Made by a program: the position numbers and the translations under genes. Below are positions 1,860 through 34,070 of a stretch of DNA of 64,000 bases, piece after piece. Location of the stretch: the NCBI GenBank assembly GCA_036802765.1, contig DAIRVP010000002.1:4152-68151 (forward strand), written 5' to 3'. The notes beneath the pieces are model-generated. The model was not told the DNA's origin and did not search any database. It was given only the letters and a program-made list of their open reading frames with translations. Positions within the stretch are counted from its first letter, which is position 1; each line of letters opens with the position of its first letter. The DNA comes from Candidatus Rokuibacteriota bacterium. GTDB taxonomy: Bacteria > Methylomirabilota > Methylomirabilia > Rokubacteriales > CSP1-6.

Positions 1860-3311
1860 ATGACTGATAAGGTCGAGCGTACGCATCCCGAGCGTTTCTT
1901 CTCCGACCGGTTCAACGTCACGCCCGGCCTCATGGAACGGCTGCTCGGCAGTAACCTCGCGGGCCGCGTCGACGACGCCGACATTTACCTCGAGTACCGT
2001 GTCAATGAGGAGCTGGTACTAGAGGAAAACGTTGTAAAAAAAGCGTCGCGCCATGTGAGCCAGGGCGCCGGGGTCCGCGCGCAGTCGGGAACGCGCACCG
2101 GTTACGCGCACACCGACGACCTCGCTCTGCACAATCTCGAGGAGGCGGCGCGTCAGGCGCGCGCCATCGCCGATCGCTCGGGGAAATCGGGCATCGTCGC
2201 GGTGCCCGGGCGCGGTCGGCCGCACGACCTCTATGCGCTCGCCGAGGCGCCCATCGTCACCGACCTGGCGCGCAAGCTGGACTTGCTGCGGAAGATCGAC
2301 GCGGCGTGCCGCGCGGCCGACCCGCGTGTTGTACAGGTGATCGTGTCGCTCACGAGCGAGGAAGTGGTGATGCTCATCGCCACGGCGTCCGGCTGGACCG
2401 TGGGCGACGTTCGACCGCTCACCCGGCTGAACGTAACAGTGATCGCCGAAGAGGCCGGCAAGCGTGAGATCGGCGGCTTCGGCGGCGGCGGGCGCGTCGC
2501 GTTCGATTTCTATCTCGAGGCCGAGCGCTGGAGGCGCTTCGCCGTCGAGGCCGCGCGACAGGCAACGCTCAAGCTCTCTGCCGTCGACGCGCCCGCGGGA
2601 GCGATGACGGTCGTGCTCGGCCCAGGCTGGCCCGGCATCCTGCTCCACGAAGCGATCGGGCACGGTCTGGAGGGCGATTTTAACCGCAAAGGCGTCTCGG
2701 CGTTCGCCGGACGCGTCGGTCAGAAGGTGGCCTCCGAGCTCGTCACCGTCGTTGATGACGGCACGATCGTCAATCGTCGAGGCTCGCTCAACGTCGACGA
2801 CGAGGGCACGCCGACGCGTCGCAACGTGCTCATCGAGAATGGCATCCTGCGCGGCTACATGCAGGACCGCCTCAACGCGCGGCTCATGGGTGAATCGGCC
2901 ACGGGCAACGGACGGCGCGAGTCGTACGCGCATCCGCCGCTGCCGCGGATGACGAACACGTTCATGCTCGCGGGACAGGACGACCCGGCCGACATCCTGC
3001 GCTCGGTGAAGCACGGCCTCTACGCGGTGAACTTCGGCGGCGGCCAGGTCGACATCACGAGCGGCAAGTTCGTGTTCTCCGCGAGCGAGGCCTATCTGAT
3101 CGAGGACGGCCGGGTGACGAAGCCGGTGAAGGGCGCAACGCTGATCGGCAACGGCCCTGATGCCCTCACGCGGGTCAGTCGCGTGGGGCATGACCTGGCG
3201 CTCGACGAAGGAGTCGGCACCTGCGGCAAAGACGGCCAATCGGTGCCCGTCGGCGTCGGCTTGCCGACGATCCGCCTCGACGGGATGACGGTCGGCGGGA
3301 CTGCGGTGTGA
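1860..3311 (+). CDS. tldD: metalloprotease TldD
   Basis: 483 aa with the HEAIGHGLEGDFNRKG metal-binding motif and a canonical TldD C-terminal GxC region. Directly followed by pmbA with a 4-nt overlap. Confidence 0.9.
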   Translation: MTDKVERTHPERFFSDRFNVTPGLMERLLGSNLAGRVDDADIYLEYRVNEELVLEENVVKKASRHVSQGAGVRAQSGTRTGYAHTDDLALHNLEEAARQARAIADRSGKSGIVAVPGRGRPHDLYALAEAPIVTDLARKLDLLRKIDAACRAADPRVVQVIVSLTSEEVVMLIATASGWTVGDVRPLTRLNVTVIAEEAGKREIGGFGGGGRVAFDFYLEAERWRRFAVEAARQATLKLSAVDAPAGAMTVVLGPGWPGILLHEAIGHGLEGDFNRKGVSAFAGRVGQKVASELVTVVDDGTIVNRRGSLNVDDEGTPTRRNVLIENGILRGYMQDRLNARLMGESATGNGRRESYAHPPLPRMTNTFMLAGQDDPADILRSVKHGLYAVNFGGGQVDITSGKFVFSASEAYLIEDGRVTKPVKGATLIGNGPDALTRVSRVGHDLALDEGVGTCGKDGQSVPVGVGLPTIRLDGMTVGGTAV

Positions 3312-4654
3312 CCGAGCTCGACGCCACGCTGCTGACCGACGTGCTCAAGCGCGCGACGGCGCGTGGTGCGACCGCCGCCGACGGCTTCCTCATCGAAGAG
3401 CAGTCCTTCAGCGCTTCCGTGCGCCTCGGGCAGGTCGACACGGTGACGCACTCGCGCGAGCAACGGCTGGCGCTGCGTGTGTTTGCCGGCCGCGCGTCCG
3501 CGGCCGCATCGACGTCCGACCTCTCGCGCGATTCGCTCGAGCGCGTCGTCGACGAGGCTACTGCTCTGGCGCGGGTGACCTCCGAAGATCTCCATGCGGG
3601 CCTGCCCGAAGCGCAGGAGCTGATCGAGCGCGTGCCCGACCTCGAGCTCGAGGATCACGAGGGGTCCGAGCTCACGCCGGAGGAGAAGATCGAGCTGGCG
3701 CGACGCGCCGAGGCGGCGGCGCTCGCGGCCGATCCGCGCATCACGAATTCGGAAGGCGCGGAATACTTCGATCGGCGCGCGCGTTACGCGTACGCGACCT
3801 CGCACGGCTTTGCACGCGGCTACAGCACCTCGTCGTTCGGGCTTACCGTCTCGCCGGTGGCATCGAAGGATGGCGAGATGCAGCGCGACGCATGGTACAC
3901 GTACGCGCGGCGCCGGCGCGCGCTCGAGGATGCCGAGTCGGTCGGCAAAACGGCCGCGGCGCGCGCGCTGCGCCGCCTCGGCGCGCGCAAGGTGAAGACC
4001 GCCGAGGTGCCGGTGATCTTCGATCCCGACATGGCGGCCAGCCTGCTGCGCTCGATCGCCGGCGCTGCCAGTGGCCCGAGCCTCTATCGGCGCGCCTCGT
4101 TTCTGTTCGAGCGTCTCGGTACACGCATCGCGGCGCCGACGGTGACCATCGTGGATGACGGCCTCGTTCCGGGCGCCCTCGGCTCGCGGCCGTTCGACGG
4201 CGAGGGGCTGGCGACGCGACGCACGGTGCTGGTCGGCGAGGGGAAGCTCGAGTCGTACCTGTTGGACACGTACTCGGGCCGCAAGCTAGGCCTGCCCTCG
4301 ACGCACCATGCGACGCGCGACGGCGCCGGGGTGTCGGTGGGAACGAACAACCTCATGCTGCTGACGGGTTCCGCGTCGCCCCAAGACCTCATCGGGTCAG
4401 TGAAGAGCGGCCTGTACGTCACCGAGCTCATCGGCTTCGGCATCAACGGCGTCACCGGCGACTATTCGCGCGGCGCGGCGGGGTTGTGGATCGAGGACGG
4501 TCAGCTCGCGTTCCCGGTCGAGGAGGTGACGGTCGCGGGGAACCTGCTCGAGATGTTCGAGCGGATCGATGGGATCGGCAACGATCTCGTGCTGCGCGAT
4601 CGCGTGGCGTCACCGACGCTGAAGATCGCGCGGATGGTTGTGGCGGGCGAGTAG
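3308..4654 (+). CDS. pmbA: metalloprotease PmbA/TldE
   Basis: 448 aa PmbA-like sequence lacking HExxH. Translationally coupled to tldD. Confidence 0.85.
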   Translation: MTELDATLLTDVLKRATARGATAADGFLIEEQSFSASVRLGQVDTVTHSREQRLALRVFAGRASAAASTSDLSRDSLERVVDEATALARVTSEDLHAGLPEAQELIERVPDLELEDHEGSELTPEEKIELARRAEAAALAADPRITNSEGAEYFDRRARYAYATSHGFARGYSTSSFGLTVSPVASKDGEMQRDAWYTYARRRRALEDAESVGKTAAARALRRLGARKVKTAEVPVIFDPDMAASLLRSIAGAASGPSLYRRASFLFERLGTRIAAPTVTIVDDGLVPGALGSRPFDGEGLATRRTVLVGEGKLESYLLDTYSGRKLGLPSTHHATRDGAGVSVGTNNLMLLTGSASPQDLIGSVKSGLYVTELIGFGINGVTGDYSRGAAGLWIEDGQLAFPVEEVTVAGNLLEMFERIDGIGNDLVLRDRVASPTLKIARMVVAGE

Positions 4655-16541: not shown

Positions 16542-17270
16542 ATGCCGAAGACTGCCGGCATCATTCTCATCGGCAACGAGATCCTCTCCGGCAAGACCGT
16601 CGACGCCAACGCGGCGTACCTGTGTCGTGAGCTTCGCGAGCTCGGCGTGGAGGTGGGGCGCATCCTCGTCATTCCCGACGACGTCGCTTCCATCGCGGAG
16701 GAAGTGGCGGCGTTCAGCAAAACGTTCGATTTTGTGTTCACCTCGGGCGGCGTGGGGCCCACGCACGACGACGTGACCATCGAAGGCGTCGCGCGGGCGA
16801 TGGGCGTGCCGGTGGTCCGGCACCCGGAGCTGGTTGCGCTCCTGGAACGGTACTATCGCGACACGCTGACGGACGCCGCGCTCAGAATGGCGGAGATTCC
16901 CGACGGCGCTGAGCTGATCAGGGACAACGGCCTGCGGTTTCCCAACGTCGCCATACGCAACGTCTACGTGCTGCCGGGTGTGCCGGAGATCTTCCGGCGC
17001 AAGTTCGACGCCATGCGCGAGCGCTTCCGCGACGCGCCGATCCACCTCAAGAATGTGTTCGTGCGCATCGGCGAGGGAACGCTCGCCGACTATTTGAATC
17101 GACTGCTGGCCGACTTCCCGCTGCTGATGGTGGGCTCGTACCCGGAGCTGTCCAATCCGGAATATCAGGTGAAGGTCACGCTGGAGTCGCGCGACCGCGG
17201 GTATCTCGAGCAGGCGCTGGCCGACTTCCTGGGGCGGCTGCCGAGCGACGCCGTCGTGAAAGTTAGCTGA
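16542..17270 (+). CDS. CinA-like molybdopterin-binding (MoCF-biosynthesis) domain protein
   Basis: N-terminal IILIGNEILSGKTVDANAAYL pattern typical of MoaB/MogA/CinA folds. Confidence 0.55.
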   Translation: MPKTAGIILIGNEILSGKTVDANAAYLCRELRELGVEVGRILVIPDDVASIAEEVAAFSKTFDFVFTSGGVGPTHDDVTIEGVARAMGVPVVRHPELVALLERYYRDTLTDAALRMAEIPDGAELIRDNGLRFPNVAIRNVYVLPGVPEIFRRKFDAMRERFRDAPIHLKNVFVRIGEGTLADYLNRLLADFPLLMVGSYPELSNPEYQVKVTLESRDRGYLEQALADFLGRLPSDAVVKVS

Positions 17271-24585: not shown

Positions 24586-25197
24586 ATGGACAACGCTTTC
24601 GCCACGATCTCCCCGTGCACTTTCGCCGAAGTCGTCACGCGTGATCGCGTCATGGACCCGGCCATCCGGCCGCTCTGGCAGCCGATGCCGCGACTGGCCG
24701 GTTCCGCTTACCCCGTCGCGTGTCCCGCCGGCGACAATCTCATGCTGCACGTGGCGATCCATCGGGCTCCGGCGGGCTCAGTTATCGTCTGCGCAGCGGG
24801 CGACTCCAACTGGGCCATGGCCGGCGGCAACGTGTGCGCCTACGCGAAGCAGCGCGGCATCGCAGGATTCGTCGTCGATGGCGTCATCCGCGACATCGCC
24901 GAAACTCGGAAGAACGCGTTTCCGGTCTTCGGCCGCGGCGTGATTCCGATTCCCGGTGTACGAAAGACGCCGGGACTCATCGACGTCGCGGTCGTGTGTG
25001 GCGGCGTCACCGTGGCGCCGGGTGACGTGGTGATCGCCGACGAGGAGGGGATCGTCGTGCTGCCGAAGGCCCAGGCGGCGGACATGCTCGCCAAGGCTCA
25101 GGCGCGCGCCAAGAAAGAGGAAGAGACGACCCTCGAGCAGTGGGTCAAGAACCACAAGGAACGGATCGACGAGGCGGTGAAGACGCTGGGGATCTAG
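24586..25197 (+). CDS. RraA-family protein (RNase E inhibitor / 4-hydroxy-4-methyl-2-oxoglutarate aldolase fold)
   Basis: RraA-like GDNLMLHVAI...GVIRDI pattern. About 200 aa. Confidence 0.7.
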   Translation: MDNAFATISPCTFAEVVTRDRVMDPAIRPLWQPMPRLAGSAYPVACPAGDNLMLHVAIHRAPAGSVIVCAAGDSNWAMAGGNVCAYAKQRGIAGFVVDGVIRDIAETRKNAFPVFGRGVIPIPGVRKTPGLIDVAVVCGGVTVAPGDVVIADEEGIVVLPKAQAADMLAKAQARAKKEEETTLEQWVKNHKERIDEAVKTLGI

Positions 25198-25511
25198 CTC
25201 CCCAGCGCCTTGTCGATCTTCGCCTCGAGCATCGCGCGCGGCACCGCGCCAACCACGGTATCGACGATCCGTCCGTCCTTGACGAGCAGGATGGTCGGAA
25301 TGGAGCGGATCTCGTAGCGGGCGGCCAGCGCCGGCTCCTCGTCGACGTTCACCTTCGCGAGCTTCACGCGTCCCGCGCGGTCCCGCTCGAGTGCGTCGAG
25401 CACAGGGCCAATGGCGCGGCACGGGCCGCACCAGGGGGCCCAAAAGTCGACGAGCAGCAACTCGTCTGTCGTGGCGAGCGTCTCGTCGAATGTCGATTCG
25501 GTCAGGGTCAT
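25194..25511 (-). CDS. trxA: thioredoxin
   Basis: WAPWCGPCR active site. 105 aa. Confidence 0.9.
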   Translation of the reverse strand: MTLTESTFDETLATTDELLLVDFWAPWCGPCRAIGPVLDALERDRAGRVKLAKVNVDEEPALAARYEIRSIPTILLVKDGRIVDTVVGAVPRAMLEAKIDKALGS

Positions 25512-25575: not shown

Positions 25576-26070
25576 CTATTGCTTCTCGAAGAAGGCGACG
25601 TTGTTCATCGGCTTGCCTTCAGCGTTCGTGCCCTTGGCCGTCGCGGTCATCGTCTTGCCGTCCGCTGACACCACGCGCCGGATAGTCTGAATCACCTTGC
25701 CGTCCTTCTTGTCCGTGCGCACGGTCGTGCGCGCATCGATGCGCTTGAGCGAAACCTTGTCGGCGCCGAGTGCCGAGCCCGTGAGGGGATAGTCCTTGCC
25801 GTCGTAATTGGCCGTGTACGTGCTTGTGACCTTTTGGCCGTCCGGCGTCATCACCTCCGAGGTGAGTTTTTCACCCTTACCGGCGGACTCGACCGTGAGG
25901 GTCTGGCTCTGGGGCGCCGGACCTGGGTTGTATTTGGACTTGGCGACGTTGAGCTTCCACGTGCCGATGCGCGGGTCCTGGGCCTGGGCCGACAGGCTTG
26001 CGACGTCCGCAACGAGCATCACGACAAGAGCGACGAGTCCGAGAATGATCCCACGCCTGGTCGAGGTCAT
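25576..26070 (-). CDS. secreted hypothetical protein
   Basis: N-terminal signal peptide (GIILGLVALVVMLVADVASLSAQA) and a beta-rich Thr/Lys-rich mature part. Confidence 0.5.
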   Translation of the reverse strand: MTSTRRGIILGLVALVVMLVADVASLSAQAQDPRIGTWKLNVAKSKYNPGPAPQSQTLTVESAGKGEKLTSEVMTPDGQKVTSTYTANYDGKDYPLTGSALGADKVSLKRIDARTTVRTDKKDGKVIQTIRRVVSADGKTMTATAKGTNAEGKPMNNVAFFEKQ

Positions 26071-26162: not shown

Positions 26163-26882
26163 CTAGTCGACCAGACCGATCTTCACGCGGCGGTTGTGCC
26201 GACCCTTGTTGTCGATCTTGAGGATGCGAACGGCGCGCGACCGCCCCGTGGACGCGAGGTGCGTGCCGCCGCACGCCTGGCGATCGAGCCCGACGATCTC
26301 GACGACGCGCACGCTGCCGTCGGGCGCGGGCGGCGGCGCCACGGACCGGCAGCGGATGAGACCGGGTTCGCTCGCGAGCGCTTCGGCCGCGACCCACTCG
26401 AAGCGCAGGGGCAGATCTTGCTTGATCACGTGGTTGAGCTGAGGCTCCAGCGCGCGCAGCCGGTCGTTGTCGACGTCAGGCAGATCGAAATCGGTCCGGG
26501 CGGTGCCGTCGGCGTTGAGCTGGGCGCCGGTGATGAGCGCGCCGTGAAAGTGCTGGAACACGAGCGCGTTCAGCACGTGCGCGTTGGTGTGCAGCTCGGT
26601 CTGGAGCGCGCGAAAGGACGCGTCGACGGAGGCCTGCACGACGCCATCGATCTCGACCGGCTCGGCGAGACGGTGCCACACGCGGCCGTCCGGCGCGACC
26701 TCGAAGCCGGTGATCGCCGTCTCGCCCGATCGCCACGCGAGGTGCCCGCGGTCGGCGAGCTGACCACCGCCACCCGGATGAAACGGGCTCTGCTCCAGCA
26801 CGATGGCGCCGGGACGGGCGTCGATGACGTTCGTCTCGAGGACCAGCACGTCAGGATGTTCGTGGCAGAAGTAACGCGACAC
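26163..26882 (-). CDS. alanyl/threonyl-tRNA synthetase editing-domain protein (AlaX-like)
   Basis: HxxxH (HTNAHVL) and CGGTH zinc-binding motifs of the AlaX second additional domain. Confidence 0.7.
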   Translation of the reverse strand: MSRYFCHEHPDVLVLETNVIDARPGAIVLEQSPFHPGGGGQLADRGHLAWRSGETAITGFEVAPDGRVWHRLAEPVEIDGVVQASVDASFRALQTELHTNAHVLNALVFQHFHGALITGAQLNADGTARTDFDLPDVDNDRLRALEPQLNHVIKQDLPLRFEWVAAEALASEPGLIRCRSVAPPPAPDGSVRVVEIVGLDRQACGGTHLASTGRSRAVRILKIDNKGRHNRRVKIGLVD

Positions 26883-26893
26883 GGCCGCTCCGG

Positions 26894-27820
26894 TCAGCGT
26901 CCCATGAACTTCGCCACCGTGCGTGCGATGCCGGCGGGGTCGAAGCCGAATTTCGCGTAGAGGCCGCGCGGATCGCCCGATTCGCCGAAGACCGTGGTGC
27001 CGATTCGCTTCAGCGGTGTGGGACGGACTTCCGCCAGCCATTCGGCGACTGCGCCGCCTAGGCCGCCCGCGATCGAGTGGTCCTCAACCGTGACGACGCG
27101 GCCCGTCTTCGCCGCCGAGCGACCGAGCATCTCCTCGTCGAGCGGCTTGATGGACGACGCGTTGATCACCTCGGCGGAGATCGCCTCGCGCTCGAGATGC
27201 CTCGCGGCCTGCAGCGCGTTGAACACGGTGCCGCCGGTGGCGATCAGCGTGACGTCCGTGCCCGGTCGCAGCAGACACCATCGGCCGAGACGAAACCGAT
27301 AATCCGGTGGGCTGACGGGCTCGAGATTCTGGCGCGTCAGGCGCAGGTAGAGCGGGCCGACGTGCTCGGTGGCATACGCGACCGCCTGCTTGGTCTCGAG
27401 CTCGTCGGCAGGTTGGACGATCGGCACGTTCGGCAGCGCGCGCATGCACGCGATGTCCTCGAGCCCCATCTGGCTGTAGCCATCCTCACCGATGGCGACT
27501 CCCACGTGCGTGCCGACGATCTTCACGTTCGCATTCGTGTACGCGACGGAGATTCGGATCGTCTCGAAGCGGCCGACGATGAAGCAGGCGAACGAGCACG
27601 CGAAGGGCACACGACCGGTGAGCGCAAGCCCGGCCGCGATGCCGACCATGTTGGCCTCGGCGATCCCCAAATTGAAGGCGCGGCCCGGAAACTGTTTGGC
27701 GAAGCCGGCCGTCATCGTGGATTTCGACAGATCGGCGTCGAGCGTGACGATGCGCTCGTCTTTGCCGCCCAGCTCGATCAGCGCCTCGCCGAACGCAGCA
27801 CGGCTGGCTTTCGCAGCCAT
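26894..27820 (-). CDS. transketolase, C-terminal subunit
   Basis: Pyrimidine-binding and C-terminal domains (FNLGIAEANMVGIAAGLA). Follows the N-terminal subunit gene. Confidence 0.85.
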   Translation of the reverse strand: MAAKASRAAFGEALIELGGKDERIVTLDADLSKSTMTAGFAKQFPGRAFNLGIAEANMVGIAAGLALTGRVPFACSFACFIVGRFETIRISVAYTNANVKIVGTHVGVAIGEDGYSQMGLEDIACMRALPNVPIVQPADELETKQAVAYATEHVGPLYLRLTRQNLEPVSPPDYRFRLGRWCLLRPGTDVTLIATGGTVFNALQAARHLEREAISAEVINASSIKPLDEEMLGRSAAKTGRVVTVEDHSIAGGLGGAVAEWLAEVRPTPLKRIGTTVFGESGDPRGLYAKFGFDPAGIARTVAKFMGR

Positions 27821-27875
27821 CGCTCCTCCTCTATATAGGGTGACCAGCCGCTACTTGATATAGGGTGACCAGCCG

Positions 27876-28790
27876 CTACTTGGGGTCGAGACGACGCAAC
27901 TCGGCGACGATGGCCGCCGTCGCCTGATCGGTGGCCAGATGCGCCTCCCAGGCGGACTCGGGCACCCCCAGGATCTCGCGGATCGCGACGATCGCCTCCG
28001 CGGGCTTGGGCGCCTTGCCGTGCCATTCGGGATTGTTCTCCATGAACGAGACACCCTTGCCCTTGATCGTGTGCGCGACCACCAGCGTCGGCGCTCCACG
28101 GGTCGCTTCGGCCTGATCGAGGGCTTTGGCAATCTGCCCCATATCGTGCCCGTCGACCTCGATGACGGGCCAGCCGAACGCCTGCCACTTGCCGATAACC
28201 GGCTCGAGATCGAGGATCTTGGCGCAGAAATCGTCGAGCTGGATCTTGTTGTAGTCCACGATGACCGTGAGGTTGTCGACCGGATGGTGCGGCTGTCCGA
28301 GCTTGGGCGCCGACATGGCGGCCTCCCAAACCTGTCCTTCCTGAATCTCGCCGTCGCCGAGCACGCAGTAGACGCGCGATGGCCAACCCGCGAGCTTCGC
28401 GCCGAGCGCGAGCCCCAGCGCCACCGAGAGGCCCTGACCGAGCGAGCCGGTGGCCGCCTCGATACCGGAAAGGGCGACGCGATCAGGATGTCCCTGCAGC
28501 GGCGAGCCGAGCTTGCGCAGGGTGATGAGCGCGTCTTCGGAGAAGTAGCCGGCCGTCGCCATCGCGCAGTAGAGCGCCGGCACCGCGTGGCCCTTGCTCA
28601 AGACGATCCGGTCGCGCTCCGGCCACTCAGGACGGCTCGGATCATGGCGGAGCCGGCCGAACATGATTGCGACGAGCACGTCGATCACAGACAGCGAGCC
28701 GCCCGGATGACCGGAGCCCGCATGGGTGAGCATCCGAATGATCTGCACTCGACAGGCTCGGGTAATGGCCTCCAGACGCGCGTCAGCCAT
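27876..28790 (-). CDS. transketolase, N-terminal (TPP-binding) subunit
   Basis: HAGSGHPGGSLS TPP-binding motif and a GDGEIQEGQVWEA motif. Confidence 0.85.
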   Translation of the reverse strand: MADARLEAITRACRVQIIRMLTHAGSGHPGGSLSVIDVLVAIMFGRLRHDPSRPEWPERDRIVLSKGHAVPALYCAMATAGYFSEDALITLRKLGSPLQGHPDRVALSGIEAATGSLGQGLSVALGLALGAKLAGWPSRVYCVLGDGEIQEGQVWEAAMSAPKLGQPHHPVDNLTVIVDYNKIQLDDFCAKILDLEPVIGKWQAFGWPVIEVDGHDMGQIAKALDQAEATRGAPTLVVAHTIKGKGVSFMENNPEWHGKAPKPAEAIVAIREILGVPESAWEAHLATDQATAAIVAELRRLDPK

Positions 28791-30345
28791 CGACTCCCTC
28801 CGCGTGAGCGATCGCATCGATATGGACGCCGCTGACCGCGATCTCGGGGGCGTACACGACCTCATCCGCCGCCCACACGATCGTGCCCTTGACGTCTTTG
28901 GTGACGCCGACGACGTTGTTGAGGAACGTGGTGATGTTGTCGTTGATGCGGATCGTGTTCGCCTTGATCGGCTCCGCGATCCGGCCGTCGCGAATCATAT
29001 AGGAATCCGCGGTGACCGTACAGGTGAAATCACCCGCGCGGAGCCCGTTGATGGGGTACGTGTACCAGATGCGTCCGATGTAGAGCCCGTTGCCGACGCG
29101 GCGCAGCAGCTCGTCGCGGCTCACGGGGTCGGCGCCCTCGACGACGACGTTGGTGGCCGCCACCGAGGGGCGGTTCGCAAACTGCCGTCCGCCACCGGCA
29201 CCGAAGCGAAAGCCATTGCGCGGAACGAGGGCGGCCGCCCGCGCCGCGTCGCTGTCTCCGCCGAGCTTTGCCGTGCGCTGCGGATCGCGCAGCAGCCGCT
29301 GCGTGTCGTACCAGCACGACAGGCAGCCGGTGAGGACGCCGTCGCGAATCAGGTCGGTGCGCCCCGTGGGCAAGCCCTCACAGGTGATGCCTTTGGAGCC
29401 CATCATCGTCGGCATGGCGCCATGGTCGTAGATCGACAGCGCGGCCGACGCCACGCGAGCGCCGAGACGTCCGAGAAACGGGGACGCCGAAGCGTAGAAC
29501 GTGTCGGCGGTGCAGGCGGGAATGATCAGATCGTTGAGGATGTCGGTGACCGGCTGACGACCGAACACCACGGTGTAGCGGCCGGATGGCACGCGCACGC
29601 CGCCGACGGCGGCGATGGCGGCCTGCGCGGCTTCGCCGCCCGCCTCGTCGGTGAAATCGTCGAGTCGCGTTCCGGTGGACCAGCCGGAACCCTTCGCCGC
29701 ATGGGCCTCGACCATGGACGTCACGAACGCGGTGACCAGCGTCGACTCGTCGGTCTGCACGCGGGGCATTGCCGTGGAGGCGATCGCCATGCGCTCTTGA
29801 AGAATGGTCACGTCGCCGCCGATGATGAGTCCCAGCCGGCGCAGCGCTTCCTCGCTGTTCGCCAGCTCGGCCAATCGCGAGGACGCGAGGAACGTCCGCA
29901 GCGCGCCGCCCACGATGGTCCAGCCGGCCTCGACCAGGCGCTCGTCGCTCACGCGCATGAGCGACGGATCGTGGTAGTCGGCCAGCGTGCGCGGCGTGGC
30001 CAGCGGGCGTGGCAGCGAGACGAAATCGGGATCGGCGACGGCCGCGCGCCGCGCCTTGTCGAACGCGCGCTCGATTCCGGCGAGCGAGAGGTCGTTCGGC
30101 TCGCTGCCGAAGCCGAGGCGGGGGCCGCCCGGCGCGTCGAACACGATCTGGAGCCCGAGGCCGTACGACTCCACAGACTTGGGCTCCTCGACGCCGTTGC
30201 AGGGGATGTGCGAGGTGTAATTGAGCCGCGTGAGCAGCGCAGCGTTCGCGGAGACGAAGGCCTCCACCTCGTTGACGCCCGCCTGCGCGCGGGCCCACTG
30301 CAACGCCTGCTCGGCGGCGCGCGTCAGCTCGGCGAGATCGCGCAC
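28783..30345 (-). CDS. TldE/PmbA-like metallopeptidase-family protein (second paralog pair)
   Basis: TldD/PmbA fold without HExxH. GTG start at 30345 (VRDLAEL...) lies 2 nt after the rhodanese stop. The upstream in-frame extension is probably not translated. Confidence 0.7.
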   Translation of the reverse strand: MRDLAELTRAAEQALQWARAQAGVNEVEAFVSANAALLTRLNYTSHIPCNGVEEPKSVESYGLGLQIVFDAPGGPRLGFGSEPNDLSLAGIERAFDKARRAAVADPDFVSLPRPLATPRTLADYHDPSLMRVSDERLVEAGWTIVGGALRTFLASSRLAELANSEEALRRLGLIIGGDVTILQERMAIASTAMPRVQTDESTLVTAFVTSMVEAHAAKGSGWSTGTRLDDFTDEAGGEAAQAAIAAVGGVRVPSGRYTVVFGRQPVTDILNDLIIPACTADTFYASASPFLGRLGARVASAALSIYDHGAMPTMMGSKGITCEGLPTGRTDLIRDGVLTGCLSCWYDTQRLLRDPQRTAKLGGDSDAARAAALVPRNGFRFGAGGGRQFANRPSVAATNVVVEGADPVSRDELLRRVGNGLYIGRIWYTYPINGLRAGDFTCTVTADSYMIRDGRIAEPIKANTIRINDNITTFLNNVVGVTKDVKGTIVWAADEVVYAPEIAVSGVHIDAIAHAEGVDG

Positions 30346-30346
30346 G

Positions 30347-30769
30347 TCAGTGCTTGGGGTCGTTGCTGACGTTCGTGCCCTGCACCGGATAGCCCTTCGC
30401 GTGCCAGCCCGGCAGGCCTTCTTCGAGCACCCGCTGGTTCCGCCATCCGAGCGCGTACAAGACGTTGCTGGCCCCACGGGACAGCGCGTGCGGACACGTT
30501 CAGTAGAAGACGACGAGCCCGGTCTTGCTGATCTCCGGCGCGCGCCGCTCGACGCTCCGCAGCGGCATCGAGCGCGCGCCCTTGATGTGCATCTCGACGT
30601 ACGCGTCCCAGTTCCGCACGTCGATGATGTCCGCCTTCTCCCCCCGATCGAGCGCGGCCTTGAACTCGTCGACCTTGATGAAGTTGACCGGAGCGTCCGG
30701 CGGTGCGGCGGGCGCGGCCCCGATCAGCACGATGGCCGCCGCGAGCGCCGGGATCATTGCGCGCCGCAT
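30347..30769 (-). CDS. secreted single-domain rhodanese with in-frame TGA at the catalytic Cys position (candidate selenoprotein)
   Basis: Signal peptide, then a rhodanese fold (...TGLVVFY-[TGA]-TCPHALSRG...LPGWHAKGYPV). The TGA falls on the ORF-track boundary at 30500-30502. The frame continues in the same phase to a real stop at 30347. Confidence 0.5.
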
Positions 30770-30772
30770 CGG

Positions 30773-32335
30773 TCAGCCTCCGAGCACGCGCGCGCGACTG
30801 CGCATGGTGGGGCCGCCGTTGCCGAGCTTCTTGCTCTGCATCGGCTGTCCCTTGCCGCAGTTGGGAATCGGATAGAGGCGGAAGTCGCGTCCGACGGCGT
30901 CGACGTTCATCAGATAGTCGCGCGTGTCGGCGGCGATGCCGCCGTTTCGATAGAGCCGCGTGACCTCACCGCGCTCGATCGCGTATACCTTGCGCGCGGA
31001 GATGCGGAAGTTCTCGCGGCTCTCGGCGATCGACGGGATGCGGTGGCCGACCAGGTAAAAGCCGTGGTCGACGTCGCCGATGATGCGCGCCGGGTCGTCG
31101 TTGCCGCCGTCGAAGACGGTGTTCGACATACGGATCAACGGCACGAGGGCGGCGCTGGTCGCCTTGAAGTGGCCGTTCGGCTCGCCGCCGAAGACGGCAG
31201 CCGTCTGGCGGCTGTTCATGAAGCCGCGAAAGATGCCGCGCTCGATGTGCGTCACCCGCCGCGCCGGCGTGCCCTCGTGATCGTAGGCGTAATGACCGTA
31301 ACCGGGCAGGGCGGGGTCCGAGTAAGCGGTCACCAGCGGGGAGGCGATCCGACGCCCGACCTGGTGGGCGTCGAGATCCCCGAGCAGCCACGAGCGGCCG
31401 GCGTACGCCGTTTCCATCTTGAGCGCGCGGTCGAGCTCGGCCGGGTGGCCGACGATCTCGTGCGAGACAAGCGTGTTGTAGTGCGGGTCGGTGACGACGA
31501 CGACCTCGCGGTCGGACGTTGGCAGCGTGGGAGCCTGGGCCAGCTCGGCGGCGTCGCGCGCCAGCGCCAGCGCGAACTCGCGGAAGGGCGGGAAGGTGAG
31601 CAGCGGCTCGGCCACGCCCACGCCGATGACCTCCCAGCCACGCTGATGGCCCATGACGTCGTAGATCTCCTGGCTCGTTTCCGGCCCCACGGCAACGACC
31701 GAAGCCGCGCCCTGCGTGAGGGCAAAGCCCTGATCGATGAGCGCACCCTCCGTCGAGGCGAACAGCTCGCGTGTGAGCTGGGTCAGCAGCGGCACCCAGT
31801 TGTAACGCACGCTCGGCTGCGCCGCAGCGATCGCGCGCGAGACGTCGGTCGCCACCGCAACCATTTCCGCCAGCGTCACGCTCCGCGGATCGATCCGATA
31901 GACGGCGGGCACGACGTCGCGTCGTACGTCGACAGCATGCAGCTGCAAGTCGGCGAGCGCGTCGCCGAGCGGCCCGAACTTCTCGCGCGCCGTCGCCTTG
32001 TGCTCGGCGTTGGCCATCGCCCGCCGGTATGCGCGCTCGAGCGCCTCGATCAGTCGCTGCTCGAGCTCGTTGACCTCCGCGGCGCCGAGCACGATGCCGA
32101 TCCATCCGGGCGCGACCGCGCGGTCGCCGGCCAGCACGCGGACGCCGGCCGTGCACATGTAGTCGTCGCCGGACGAACGCTCGGCGCCGTTCTCCGCGAT
32201 CGCGTAGCGAGCCTCGGTCACTTCGAGCCTCAGGTCGGCGTACGCGAGGTGCGGCAAGCGGCGCCGTGCATCGGCGAGGATCGTCGGCACGCTCGTGCGT
32301 GCGCGATCGATGAGATCGACGGTCAGCGTCGTCAT
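30773..32335 (-). CDS. TldD-like zinc metallopeptidase (second paralog pair)
   Basis: HEIVGHPAELD zinc motif and a C-terminal NCGKGQ motif. The ATG overlaps the moeA stop. Confidence 0.8.
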   Translation of the reverse strand: MTTLTVDLIDRARTSVPTILADARRRLPHLAYADLRLEVTEARYAIAENGAERSSGDDYMCTAGVRVLAGDRAVAPGWIGIVLGAAEVNELEQRLIEALERAYRRAMANAEHKATAREKFGPLGDALADLQLHAVDVRRDVVPAVYRIDPRSVTLAEMVAVATDVSRAIAAAQPSVRYNWVPLLTQLTRELFASTEGALIDQGFALTQGAASVVAVGPETSQEIYDVMGHQRGWEVIGVGVAEPLLTFPPFREFALALARDAAELAQAPTLPTSDREVVVVTDPHYNTLVSHEIVGHPAELDRALKMETAYAGRSWLLGDLDAHQVGRRIASPLVTAYSDPALPGYGHYAYDHEGTPARRVTHIERGIFRGFMNSRQTAAVFGGEPNGHFKATSAALVPLIRMSNTVFDGGNDDPARIIGDVDHGFYLVGHRIPSIAESRENFRISARKVYAIERGEVTRLYRNGGIAADTRDYLMNVDAVGRDFRLYPIPNCGKGQPMQSKKLGNGGPTMRSRARVLGG

Positions 32336-32336
32336 G

Positions 32337-33539
32337 TCAGAGCACGTCGAACGGTTCGACGGTGACGCGCTCGCCGGCGGCCACGTCGCCCCGGCTCTCT
32401 TCGAGGACGACGAAGCAGTTGCCGGCGACCATCGAGAACAGGATGCCTGAGCCCTGCGGCCCCGTCGTGCATACCTCCCAGTCGCCGTTGCGAAAGCCGA
32501 GCACGCCGCGCTTGTACTCCGTCCGACCGGTCTTCTTGCGCATCGGCTCCAGGGCTCGCGCCTGCCACGTCGCCGGAAAGAGCCGGCGCCGGCCCGCGAG
32601 CTTATAGAGCGCCGGGCGCACGAACAGCATGAACGACAGCAGTGACGCCACCGGGTTGCCGGGCAGCCCGAAGAACAGCGCGCCGCCGATGCGACCGACG
32701 GCGAAGGGGCGGCCCGGCTGCATCGCCACCTGCCAGAAATCGATCGCGCCGAGCTCCTGCAGCACGTCCTTGACGAGGTCGTAGACCCCGACGGAGACGC
32801 CGCCGGACGTCACGACGATGTCGGCGGCGCGCGCGGCGTCTTCGAGCGTGGCGCGCAGCGTGTCGCGGACGTCCGGCACGATCCCGAGGTCGCTGACGTC
32901 GCCGCCGCACTGCTCGATCGAGCCGCGCAACGTGAAGCGGTTCGCGTCGTAGATCTGACCCGGCCGGCGCGGCGAGCCCGGTTCCGCAACCTCGTCACCC
33001 GTCGACATCAGGGCGACCCGCGGCCGCCGGTGCACCGGGATCTGCCAGGCGCCGAGCGAGGCCATCAGCCCGACTTCCTGGGGCCGCAGCACGGTGCCGC
33101 TCTCGATCACCGTCTTGCCCATCACGACGTCTTCGCCCGCGCGCCGGACGTTCGCCCCTTTGTCGAGCGGCCCGATCCGTACGCGATCGCCGACACGCTC
33201 GACCACTTCTTGCGGATAGACGGTGTCGGCTCCCGCGGGCATCGGCGCGCCCGTCATGATCCGCAGCGCCTGGCCGGCCGTGAGCGCGCGGTCGAAGACG
33301 GAGCCGGCGGCGAGATCACCGACCACGAGGAGCTCACGCGTGCCACGCGCGGGGATTTCTGCGCTGCCCATCGCGTAGCCGTCGACCGCGGAGTTGTCAG
33401 CCGGCGGCACGTCGAACGGCGCGGCGAAATCCTCGCTGAGGACGCGTCCGAGCGCGCGCGTCAGCGGCACCAGCTCGGATGCGAGCGGCGCGTCGATGCG
33501 GGCGAGGATTTGCGCTTGCCCGTCGCGCACCGAGATCAT
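32337..33539 (-). CDS. moeA: molybdopterin molybdotransferase MoeA
   Basis: 400 aa MoeA architecture with GGVSVG and GLPGNPVAS motifs. Confidence 0.85.
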   Translation of the reverse strand: MISVRDGQAQILARIDAPLASELVPLTRALGRVLSEDFAAPFDVPPADNSAVDGYAMGSAEIPARGTRELLVVGDLAAGSVFDRALTAGQALRIMTGAPMPAGADTVYPQEVVERVGDRVRIGPLDKGANVRRAGEDVVMGKTVIESGTVLRPQEVGLMASLGAWQIPVHRRPRVALMSTGDEVAEPGSPRRPGQIYDANRFTLRGSIEQCGGDVSDLGIVPDVRDTLRATLEDAARAADIVVTSGGVSVGVYDLVKDVLQELGAIDFWQVAMQPGRPFAVGRIGGALFFGLPGNPVASLLSFMLFVRPALYKLAGRRRLFPATWQARALEPMRKKTGRTEYKRGVLGFRNGDWEVCTTGPQGSGILFSMVAGNCFVVLEESRGDVAAGERVTVEPFDVL

Positions 33540-33557
33540 GCGCGTATTATACGCGCC

Positions 33558-34070
33558 ATGAACGCGTGGGCTTCGGGCGCGGTGCATCCCGCAGGCTTCT
33601 GGGTCCGCCTCGTCGCGTTCGCGATCGATCTGCTCGTCATCGCGCTTGTGCAGCTCGTGCTGCAGGTCATCGCCGCGGCGCGGCTCGGCGATCGCGCGCT
33701 GAGCACCGTCGGGTTCTTCACCTTCGTGTTCGCGGTCGCGTATCCGACGGTTCTGCACTCGATCGCGGGCCAGACGATCGGCAAGCTCATGATGCGCGTG
33801 CGCGTGGTGGCGCTCGACGGCGGCGCATTGCCGCTGGGCGCCTCGTTCCTGCGTGCGGTCGTTTTCTGGGCGGCGCTTCTGTTCACGCTGGGGATCGGCC
33901 AGATCATCGGCGGGCTGCGCAAGGACAAACGGGCCCTTCACGACCTCGTGGCGGGCAGTCGCGCCGAGCGTCTGCCGGGCTCGACCACGGTCCTCGCCGC
34001 GCCGCCGCCGCTCGCATCGCCAGGGTCGTTTGCGCCGCCCCCCGAATCGGGACCGCGCTCGACCGGGTGA
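33558..34070 (+). CDS. RDD-family membrane protein
   Basis: RDD-domain pattern (FWVRLVAFAIDLL...). Divergent from moeA with start codons only 18 nt apart. Confidence 0.6.
   Translation: MNAWASGAVHPAGFWVRLVAFAIDLLVIALVQLVLQVIAAARLGDRALSTVGFFTFVFAVAYPTVLHSIAGQTIGKLMMRVRVVALDGGALPLGASFLRAVVFWAALLFTLGIGQIIGGLRKDKRALHDLVAGSRAERLPGSTTVLAAPPPLASPGSFAPPPESGPRSTG

Follow-up and report, generated by a model that had tools for sequence, protein, structure and literature searches.

A likely leaderless moeA-led operon of separable genes in Rokubacteria, encoding a predicted TldD/E-type metalloprotease and a probable U-x-C selenoprotein rhodanese

The gene cluster described here comprises seven minus-strand genes at positions 26163-33539 of a 64,000-nucleotide (nt) stretch of a Candidatus Rokuibacteriota genome (the window hereafter), among them a pair of TldD-like and PmbA-like genes and, between the two, a rhodanese gene with an in-frame UGA that very probably encodes selenocysteine (Sec, U). 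The closest described counterpart of the pair is TldD/TldE (PmbA) of E. coli (PDB 5NJ5, PMC5810440), which is encoded by adjacent genes and in which one subunit carries an HExxxH motif and a C-terminal Cys ligand and its partner has no metal site. For rhodaneses, reviews list five Sec-containing forms, UxxS, UxxG, CxU, UxxG, and UxxxxU (PMC13188914). The curated model nearest to the rhodanese of the window is NF041203 (rhodanese_LYCAU), which represents the C-x-U form. Among the single-domain rhodaneses of E. coli, PspE and GlpE, PspE is a periplasmic protein with a signal peptide, as we predict for the window rhodanese. A literature search for a link between TldD and rhodaneses returned nothing relevant. 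On the evidence given below, we consider it likely that the cluster is a moeA-led operon with a leaderless transcript, whose separable genes would encode a TldD/E-type heterodimeric metalloprotease and a periplasmic U-x-C selenoprotein rhodanese. The window has a G+C content of 68%, and its proteins matched those of metagenome-assembled genomes of Rokubacteria/Methylomirabilota at 70-95% identity.

The rhodanese gene (30347..30769, minus strand) encodes a single-domain protein of 140 residues (Pfam Rhodanese, PF00581, 53 bits against a cutoff of 22), in which the UGA at 30500..30502 (minus strand) was read as Sec at residue 90. The frame runs VVFY-TGA-TCPHALSRGAS and continues for 50 codons to a second TGA, giving an active-site loop of VVFY-U-TCPHALSRGAS, and U90 aligned to the catalytic Cys of domain 2 in 1YT8, a solved rhodanese structure. 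At this position we found TGA in 62 of 62 genome loci (61 species-level genomes with the rhodanese, plus the window), and never TAA, TAG, or TGY. The 50 residues downstream of the UGA were strongly conserved in frame among the orthologues; this segment completes the rhodanese fold and lacks its own start codon. Two full-length orthologues carried Cys in place of the UGA (P0122, VVFYCTCPH; P0154, VVFYCACPH), and both lie at the same TldD-like/PmbA-like/transketolase locus. Because the TGA is invariant, the downstream frame is conserved, synonymous sites past the UGA are frozen (see below), and the Cys orthologues sit in the same locus, the rhodanese is very probably a selenoprotein, which gives strong support to what had been raised as a possibility in an earlier, sequence-only annotation of this DNA (the original prediction). 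Sec use has been reported for Methylomirabilota, with a very large predicted selenoproteome in one genome (PMC13188914, PMC13582414). A global reassignment of UGA was considered and rejected, since UGA terminates five genes of the cluster: moeA, the tldD-like gene, the rhodanese gene itself, the pmbA-like gene, and the gene for the C-terminal transketolase subunit. A further full-length orthologue on an 836-nt contig (P0121) had Arg in place of Sec or Cys (VVFYRTCPN), which fits a TGA-to-CGA change; this copy may be inactivated, or the sequence may be in error.

Downstream of the UGA, we found a candidate bacterial selenocysteine insertion sequence (SECIS) hairpin, (G)CUGUCCC-GUG-GGGCCAG(C), at 30467..30485 (minus strand), starting ~15 to 16 nt past the UGA. 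The hairpin, with the consensus CUGKCCC-GKG-GGGCCAG, was present in all loci at about 16-34 nt past the UGA, and its place and shape are as expected for a bacterial SECIS. The codons for L-(A/S)-R-G-A-S that follow the UGA showed almost no synonymous variation across the loci: within the hairpin, Gly was GGG in 60 of 60, Ala was GCC in 61 of 62, Ser was AGC in 57 of 57, and Arg was only CGG or CGU. Elsewhere in the rhodanese gene, three or four codons were used for these amino acids, and the flanking synonymous sites varied freely. We chose this hairpin model as the best account of which synonymous sites are frozen, and it is a probable, not a proven, SECIS element. When metagenomes were scanned for the exact pattern of the UGA plus the hairpin, all 120 of the 120 matches lay in the Sec-rhodanese gene.

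The motif of the window rhodanese sets it beside, and apart from, the described forms. It scored 46.8 bits against NF041203, below the cutoff of 115. Like that form, it is a small single-domain protein with Sec and Cys two residues apart in a loop following a hydrophobic strand that ends in Y. Unlike that form, however, the order is reversed, Y-U-T/A-C against Y-C-A-U, and the Sec rather than the Cys occupies the canonical catalytic position. The catalytic Sec is shared with the UxxS, UxxG, and TsoB UxxxxU forms (PMC13188914, PMC1088965), as is the status of a comparative-genomics prediction; the U-T/A-C-P-H motif is absent from the listed Sec-rhodanese motifs, a separation from those forms that is drawn from motif descriptions only. 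With PspE and GlpE it shares the single rhodanese domain of ~100 residues, but these proteins have Cys instead of Sec, a shorter active-site loop, and no vicinal Cys, and their NCBIfam models matched weakly (E only 1e-4, far under the cutoffs). The window protein would be a further Sec-rhodanese form, its U-x-C motif standing in reverse order, and most of the Rokubacteria sampled carry it. Its N-terminus consists of MRR, a hydrophobic stretch, and AAPAAPP, and is conserved in the orthologues, suggesting export by a Sec-type signal peptide and agreeing with the earlier description of the protein as secreted. The TldD-like, PmbA-like, and MoeA proteins have no signal sequence.

The two genes that flank the rhodanese gene encode proteins of 520 amino acids (aa) each, the TldD-like catalytic subunit (30773..32335, minus strand; Pfam PmbA_TldD_3rd) and the PmbA/TldE-like non-catalytic partner (28783..30345, minus strand, GTG start; Pfam PmbA_TldD_3rd, PF19289, 132 bits). 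The TldD-like protein has the HEIVGH motif (H292, E293, and H297) and an NCGK cysteine (C493); all four residues are invariant in 26 bacterial and archaeal homologues and align with those of the canonical TldD of the window. Its AlphaFold2 model (predicted local distance difference test score of 85.6) had TldD chains as its best PDB matches over the full length (5NJC, 5NJ5, and 5NJF), with template modeling (TM) scores of 0.72-0.78 and an E value of 1e-36 against E. coli TldD. Nevertheless, it fell under the NCBIfam cutoffs, with 82 bits against 513 for NF008006 and 125 bits against 635 for NF040952, and it represents a distinct subfamily, not a TldD equivalog. The PmbA-like protein, which lacked HExxxH in 18 of 18 bacterial and archaeal orthologues, likewise remained below the equivalog threshold of NCBIfam PmbA (41 bits against a cutoff of 438). 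The motif Y-T-S-x-x-x-C-N-G-V-E-x-P at residues 43-55 of the latter did not vary among 18 orthologues from Rokubacteria, Nitrospirales, Chloroflexi, and archaea, and could form a second functional site specific to the long subfamily.

Adjacent genes, a shared full-length fold (for TldD), and an HExxxH plus C-terminal Cys site in one subunit opposite a partner without a metal site are all features of E. coli TldD/TldE as well. On the other hand, both window subunits are ~520 aa long, compared to 481 and 450 aa in E. coli, their N-terminal domains are missed by Pfam, and the pair scored well under the NCBIfam cutoffs for TldD, archaeal TldD, and PmbA. The window also has a canonical pair at 1860-4654, consisting of a true TldD (597 bits, cutoff of 513) and PmbA, to which the second pair is 35% (TldD) and 27% (PmbA) identical in the C-terminal part; the two pairs are distinct, as originally proposed. 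In a representative-level search, the long form fell into only ~10 full-length clusters at 50% identity, including sequences from Nitrospirales, Chloroflexi, Dehalococcoidia, Planctomycetes, Nitrospinota, and archaea. From gene adjacency and the co-variation of both genes, we infer that the TldD-like and PmbA-like proteins form a heterodimeric metalloprotease.

The cluster is headed by moeA (32337..33539, minus strand), which encodes a 400-aa molybdopterin molybdotransferase (Pfam MoeA_N, MoCF_biosynth, and MoeA_C; NCBIfam NF007960, 485 bits against a cutoff of 440). All seven gene calls are backed by Pfam and NCBIfam, consistent with the original prediction of seven genes on one strand at 26163-33539, and the compact, co-directional layout was likewise borne out by tight junctions; the cluster as such is conserved in relatives. 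The moeA stop codon and the tldD-like start codon, which had been described as overlapping, are separated by 1 nt (TGAcATG), a trivial correction. The tldD-like/rhodanese junction reads TGAccgATG, with GGAGG upstream. The rhodanese and pmbA-like genes were correctly called near-abutting, but their spacer is 1 nt (TGAcGTG), not 2 nt. The GTG start of the pmbA-like gene is backed by relatives in which the tblastn match for the PmbA-like protein begins within a few nt of the rhodanese stop (several loci, including L002, L007, and L017); in other relatives, it begins 10-70 nt later. The start of the N-terminal transketolase gene, tkN, overlaps the pmbA-like stop by 8 nt, as had been noted, and the junction reads ATGGCTGA. 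Across the cluster, the spacers range from -8 to +11 nt, except for the 55 nt between tkN and tkC, the gene for the C-terminal subunit.

Upstream of moeA we found a TATAAT -10 box (33546..33551, minus strand), 6 nt before the moeA ATG and inside the palindrome GCGCGTATAATACGCGC. It is the sole TATAAT in the 64-kb window on both strands, and a TATAAT-like box stood at the same distance from the moeA ATG in 69 of 71 related loci despite the high G+C content, being an exact TATAAT in nearly all of them. This conserved box at 6 nt from the ATG is probably the promoter of the moeA-led transcript and would yield a leaderless moeA mRNA. It was found by reading the moeA upstream regions in relatives, not by the two-hexamer sigma-70 scan, which gave nothing; terminator matches were weak or within coding sequence. 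Between the cluster genes, the same scan revealed no convincing terminator or promoter, and the cluster is likely to be co-transcribed. The moeA ATG at 33539 (minus strand) faces the ATG of a divergent RDD-family gene at 33558 (plus strand), and the 17-nt palindrome nearly fills the 18-nt gap between them (33540-33557). In the moeA direction GCGCGTATAATACGCGC gives TATAAT, and in the RDD direction TATTAT. The two genes may both be leaderless, with one bidirectional promoter or operator serving the pair.

To follow the arrangement within the phylum, we mapped 80 species-level genome loci by tblastn and scored neighbors as the number of loci with a gene over the number of loci long enough to contain it. 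The order moeA-tldD-like-(rhodanese)-pmbA-like-tkN-tkC was found in nearly all of the 80 loci. Genes of the operon scored 60/60 (MoeA) and 40/47 (TK-N), and control neighbors, mostly on the opposite strand, scored 44/46 (PolB), 48/50 (RRM), 53/56 (DUF309), and 55/58 (RDD). Because unrelated neighbors are equally conserved, conservation within the phylum reflects general synteny. Individual genes were also missing. At least four scattered clades lacked the rhodanese gene and had junctions of 15-52 nt like those of outgroups, and the transketolase genes were deleted in six loci (L001-L003, L015, L017, and L053). The TldD-like/PmbA-like junction contained crotonase, retropepsin-like, and tetratricopeptide repeat (TPR) genes in three loci and is a recurrent insertion site. 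These inserts (L056, 2867-5150; L061, 4382-6038; L062, 11469-12362) encode a crotonase-family protein, a small retropepsin-like aspartyl protease, a TPR protein, and an unknown 337-aa protein.

The metagenome loci with a Sec-rhodanese and enough flank had TldD-like upstream in 89 of 97, PmbA-like downstream in 85 of 91, and MoeA upstream in 53 of 53. Five of them (L140, L154, L161, L164, and L189) had the order moeA-SecRhd-tkN-tkC with no protease genes, and in two others (L121 and L159), the TldD-like gene was replaced by patatin-like and CxxC (YkgJ-like) genes, next to a short remnant of PmbA-like. Given these independent losses, the protease pair does not require the rhodanese, nor does the rhodanese depend on the pair. 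The sole constant neighbor of the rhodanese is moeA, a gene found just as regularly in loci without the rhodanese.

Outside the phylum, TldD-like and PmbA-like genes of the long form were adjacent or overlapping in 5 of the 7 contexts that we read, and no adjacent PmbA-like gene was called in the other 2. None of the 7 had moeA, a rhodanese gene, or transketolase genes near the pair, and no such association was seen in the Nitrospirales, Dehalococcoidia, Chloroflexi, Planctomycetes, or archaeal loci. The Sec-rhodanese was not found beyond Rokubacteria/Methylomirabilota. Conservation of the neighborhood, which had been proposed as a check on the arrangement, therefore holds across nearly the whole phylum sample but stops at the phylum border, and the signs of functional coupling, persistence in distant lineages and conservation above background synteny, were not seen. 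Four loci binned as Acidoferrum, Binatia, and Dormiibacterota (L031, L043, L047, and L076) showed the full Rokubacteria-type arrangement at ~70% identity; they are probably mis-binned Rokubacteria contigs and not cases of transfer.

Downstream of the pmbA-like gene, the cluster is completed by a split transketolase and an AlaX-like gene. The gene tkN (27876..28790, minus strand) encodes the N-terminal, thiamine diphosphate-binding subunit (Pfam Transketolase_N; N-terminal half of NCBIfam NF004559), and tkC (26894..27820, minus strand) encodes the C-terminal subunit with the pyrimidine-binding and C-terminal domains (Pfam Transket_pyr and Transketolase_C; C-terminal half of NF004559). The wide tkN-tkC spacer is due to a 25-nt perfect tandem duplication (2.0 copies, 27833..27882, read from the sequence) that extends across the tkN stop codon and resembles the product of recent slippage or of faulty assembly; in relatives, the distance was ~3-60 nt and commonly <20 nt by the tblastn maps. 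The AlaX-like alanyl-tRNA editing protein (26163..~26882, minus strand; Pfam tRNA_SAD) scored 152 bits against NCBIfam AlaXM, under the cutoff of 300. Its start is probably the GTG at 26882, which has GGAG upstream and would leave a spacer of 11 nt to tkC. An AlaX-like gene was present at the locus only in the closest relatives (5 of 43 loci). The next two genes, also on the minus strand, encode a protein of 164 aa that starts with a signal-peptide-like segment and has no Pfam match (25576-26070; 1 of 42 loci) and a thioredoxin-like protein called from its WCGPC motif, outside the Pfam scan (25194-25511; 6 of 42 loci); both are restricted to the closest relatives and hence lie outside the conserved block. 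A second gene with a MoCF_biosynth domain (CinA/FAD-synthase-middle type; 16542-17270, plus strand) lies ~10 kb from the operon, and L081 has it in a comparable relative position; as far as tested, it has no connection with the function of moeA.

Taken together, the cluster appears to be a lineage-specific series of housekeeping genes that are separable from one another, and not a dedicated molybdenum/sulfur/selenium (Mo/S/Se) module. In the likely operon outlined at the outset, transcription would start at the TATAAT box and produce a leaderless moeA mRNA, from which MoeA would be made for the insertion of molybdenum into molybdopterin. The TldD-like protein, with its predicted zinc site (HExxxH plus Cys), and the PmbA-like protein would assemble into a cytoplasmic TldD/E-type metalloprotease, and the small gene for the exported rhodanese would have been inserted early in the lineage at the junction of the two. 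The UGA for its catalytic Sec would be decoded through the hairpin about 16-34 nt downstream, and the U-x-C site could act in the periplasm as a selenenylsulfide or perselenide/persulfide redox center. The split transketolase and the AlaX-type editing protein would complete the gene string. Several observations weigh against this account. ARAGORN detected neither a tRNA-Sec nor any other tRNA in the window, and none of selA, selB, selC, and selD was among the annotated window genes, of which Pfam covered about half of the likely ones. The stem of the hairpin is invariant and so offers no compensatory base changes, and RNAalifold on 16 sequences preferred an alternative pairing, without covariation, that also fits the data. 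The operon is read from spacing, one conserved -10 box, and no convincing internal terminators, and export from features of the N-terminal sequence. Finally, the rhodanese has been kept inside the operon over most of the phylum, even where both protease genes are gone, and this persistence may point to a genuine link with moeA or transketolase.

The reading in which the TGA is a genuine stop, leaving a truncated gene, a pseudogene, or two small genes without Sec, starts from public gene callers, which end the product at 89 residues. It is also in keeping with the lack of Rfam matches at gathering thresholds and of a tRNA-Sec in the window, and with a single-sequence fold downstream of the UGA that is no more stable than shuffled sequence (z-score not significant). 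A rough scan of the window for other UGA read-through gave only antisense-frame artifacts and is uninformative on other selenoproteins, since it missed the rhodanese itself. A stop codon would not, however, be expected to be TGA in 62 of 62 loci and never TAA or TAG, to be followed by 50 codons conserved in frame that complete the fold and have no start, to be bridged by continuous Cys orthologues, or to precede synonymous sites under RNA-level constraint, and we regard this reading as extremely improbable.

The original prediction went further and saw in the TldD-like, Sec-rhodanese, PmbA-like, and MoeA proteins a dedicated peptide- or cofactor-processing module joining a protease to Mo/S/Se metabolism. 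The tight or overlapping junctions and the recurrence of the arrangement in a majority of the 80 genome loci and of the sufficiently long metagenome loci would suit such a module, as would the role of rhodanese domains in sulfur transfer to molybdopterin and the second-best NCBIfam match of the rhodanese, a MoeB-rhodanese fusion. The distribution, however, largely refutes it: the association is missing from the out-of-phylum loci, unrelated opposite-strand genes are equally conserved, all pairwise losses occur with components lost singly, and the junction accepts unrelated genes. In addition, the rhodanese has a signal-peptide-like N-terminus that its proposed partners lack, and we consider the module very unlikely. 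A tie of the Sec-rhodanese to moeA instead of the protease pair, for the supply of sulfur or selenium in the maturation of the molybdenum cofactor or of molybdoenzymes, draws on the 53 of 53 metagenome loci with MoeA upstream, on the five loci in which the rhodanese directly follows moeA with the protease genes gone, and on Sec-containing MoeB being a listed selenoprotein family (PMC1088965). Against it stand the equal constancy of moeA in loci without the rhodanese, the mismatch between a predicted periplasmic location and cytoplasmic cofactor synthesis, and the finding of the rhodanese in one phylum only, where adjacency is inseparable from inherited synteny; such a tie is unlikely. Its stronger version, that the U-x-C-P-H rhodanese is an undescribed family confined to Rokubacteria/Methylomirabilota, present in most of the sampled genomes, and kept inside the leaderless moeA operon for sulfur/selenium handling in molybdoenzyme or cofactor maturation, is a similarly doubtful proposal, which, if true, would explain why the rhodanese stays by moeA after the loss of both protease genes.

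The leaderless operon of separable genes, which we favor, bears on how such clusters are read: strong synteny within a phylum can mimic a functional module, and in this case the sampled genomes show the losses of single components. The long, uncharacterized TldD/PmbA subfamily spans several bacterial phyla and archaea. For the rhodanese, the U-x-C motif adds a reversed-motif relative of the C-x-U rhodanese selenoproteins and hints at a chalcogen redox pair. Reading the protein as a selenoprotein also corrects a systematic annotation error, in that hundreds of public 89-residue "rhodanese-like" fragments of Rokubacteria from soil and groundwater would be 140-residue selenoproteins.

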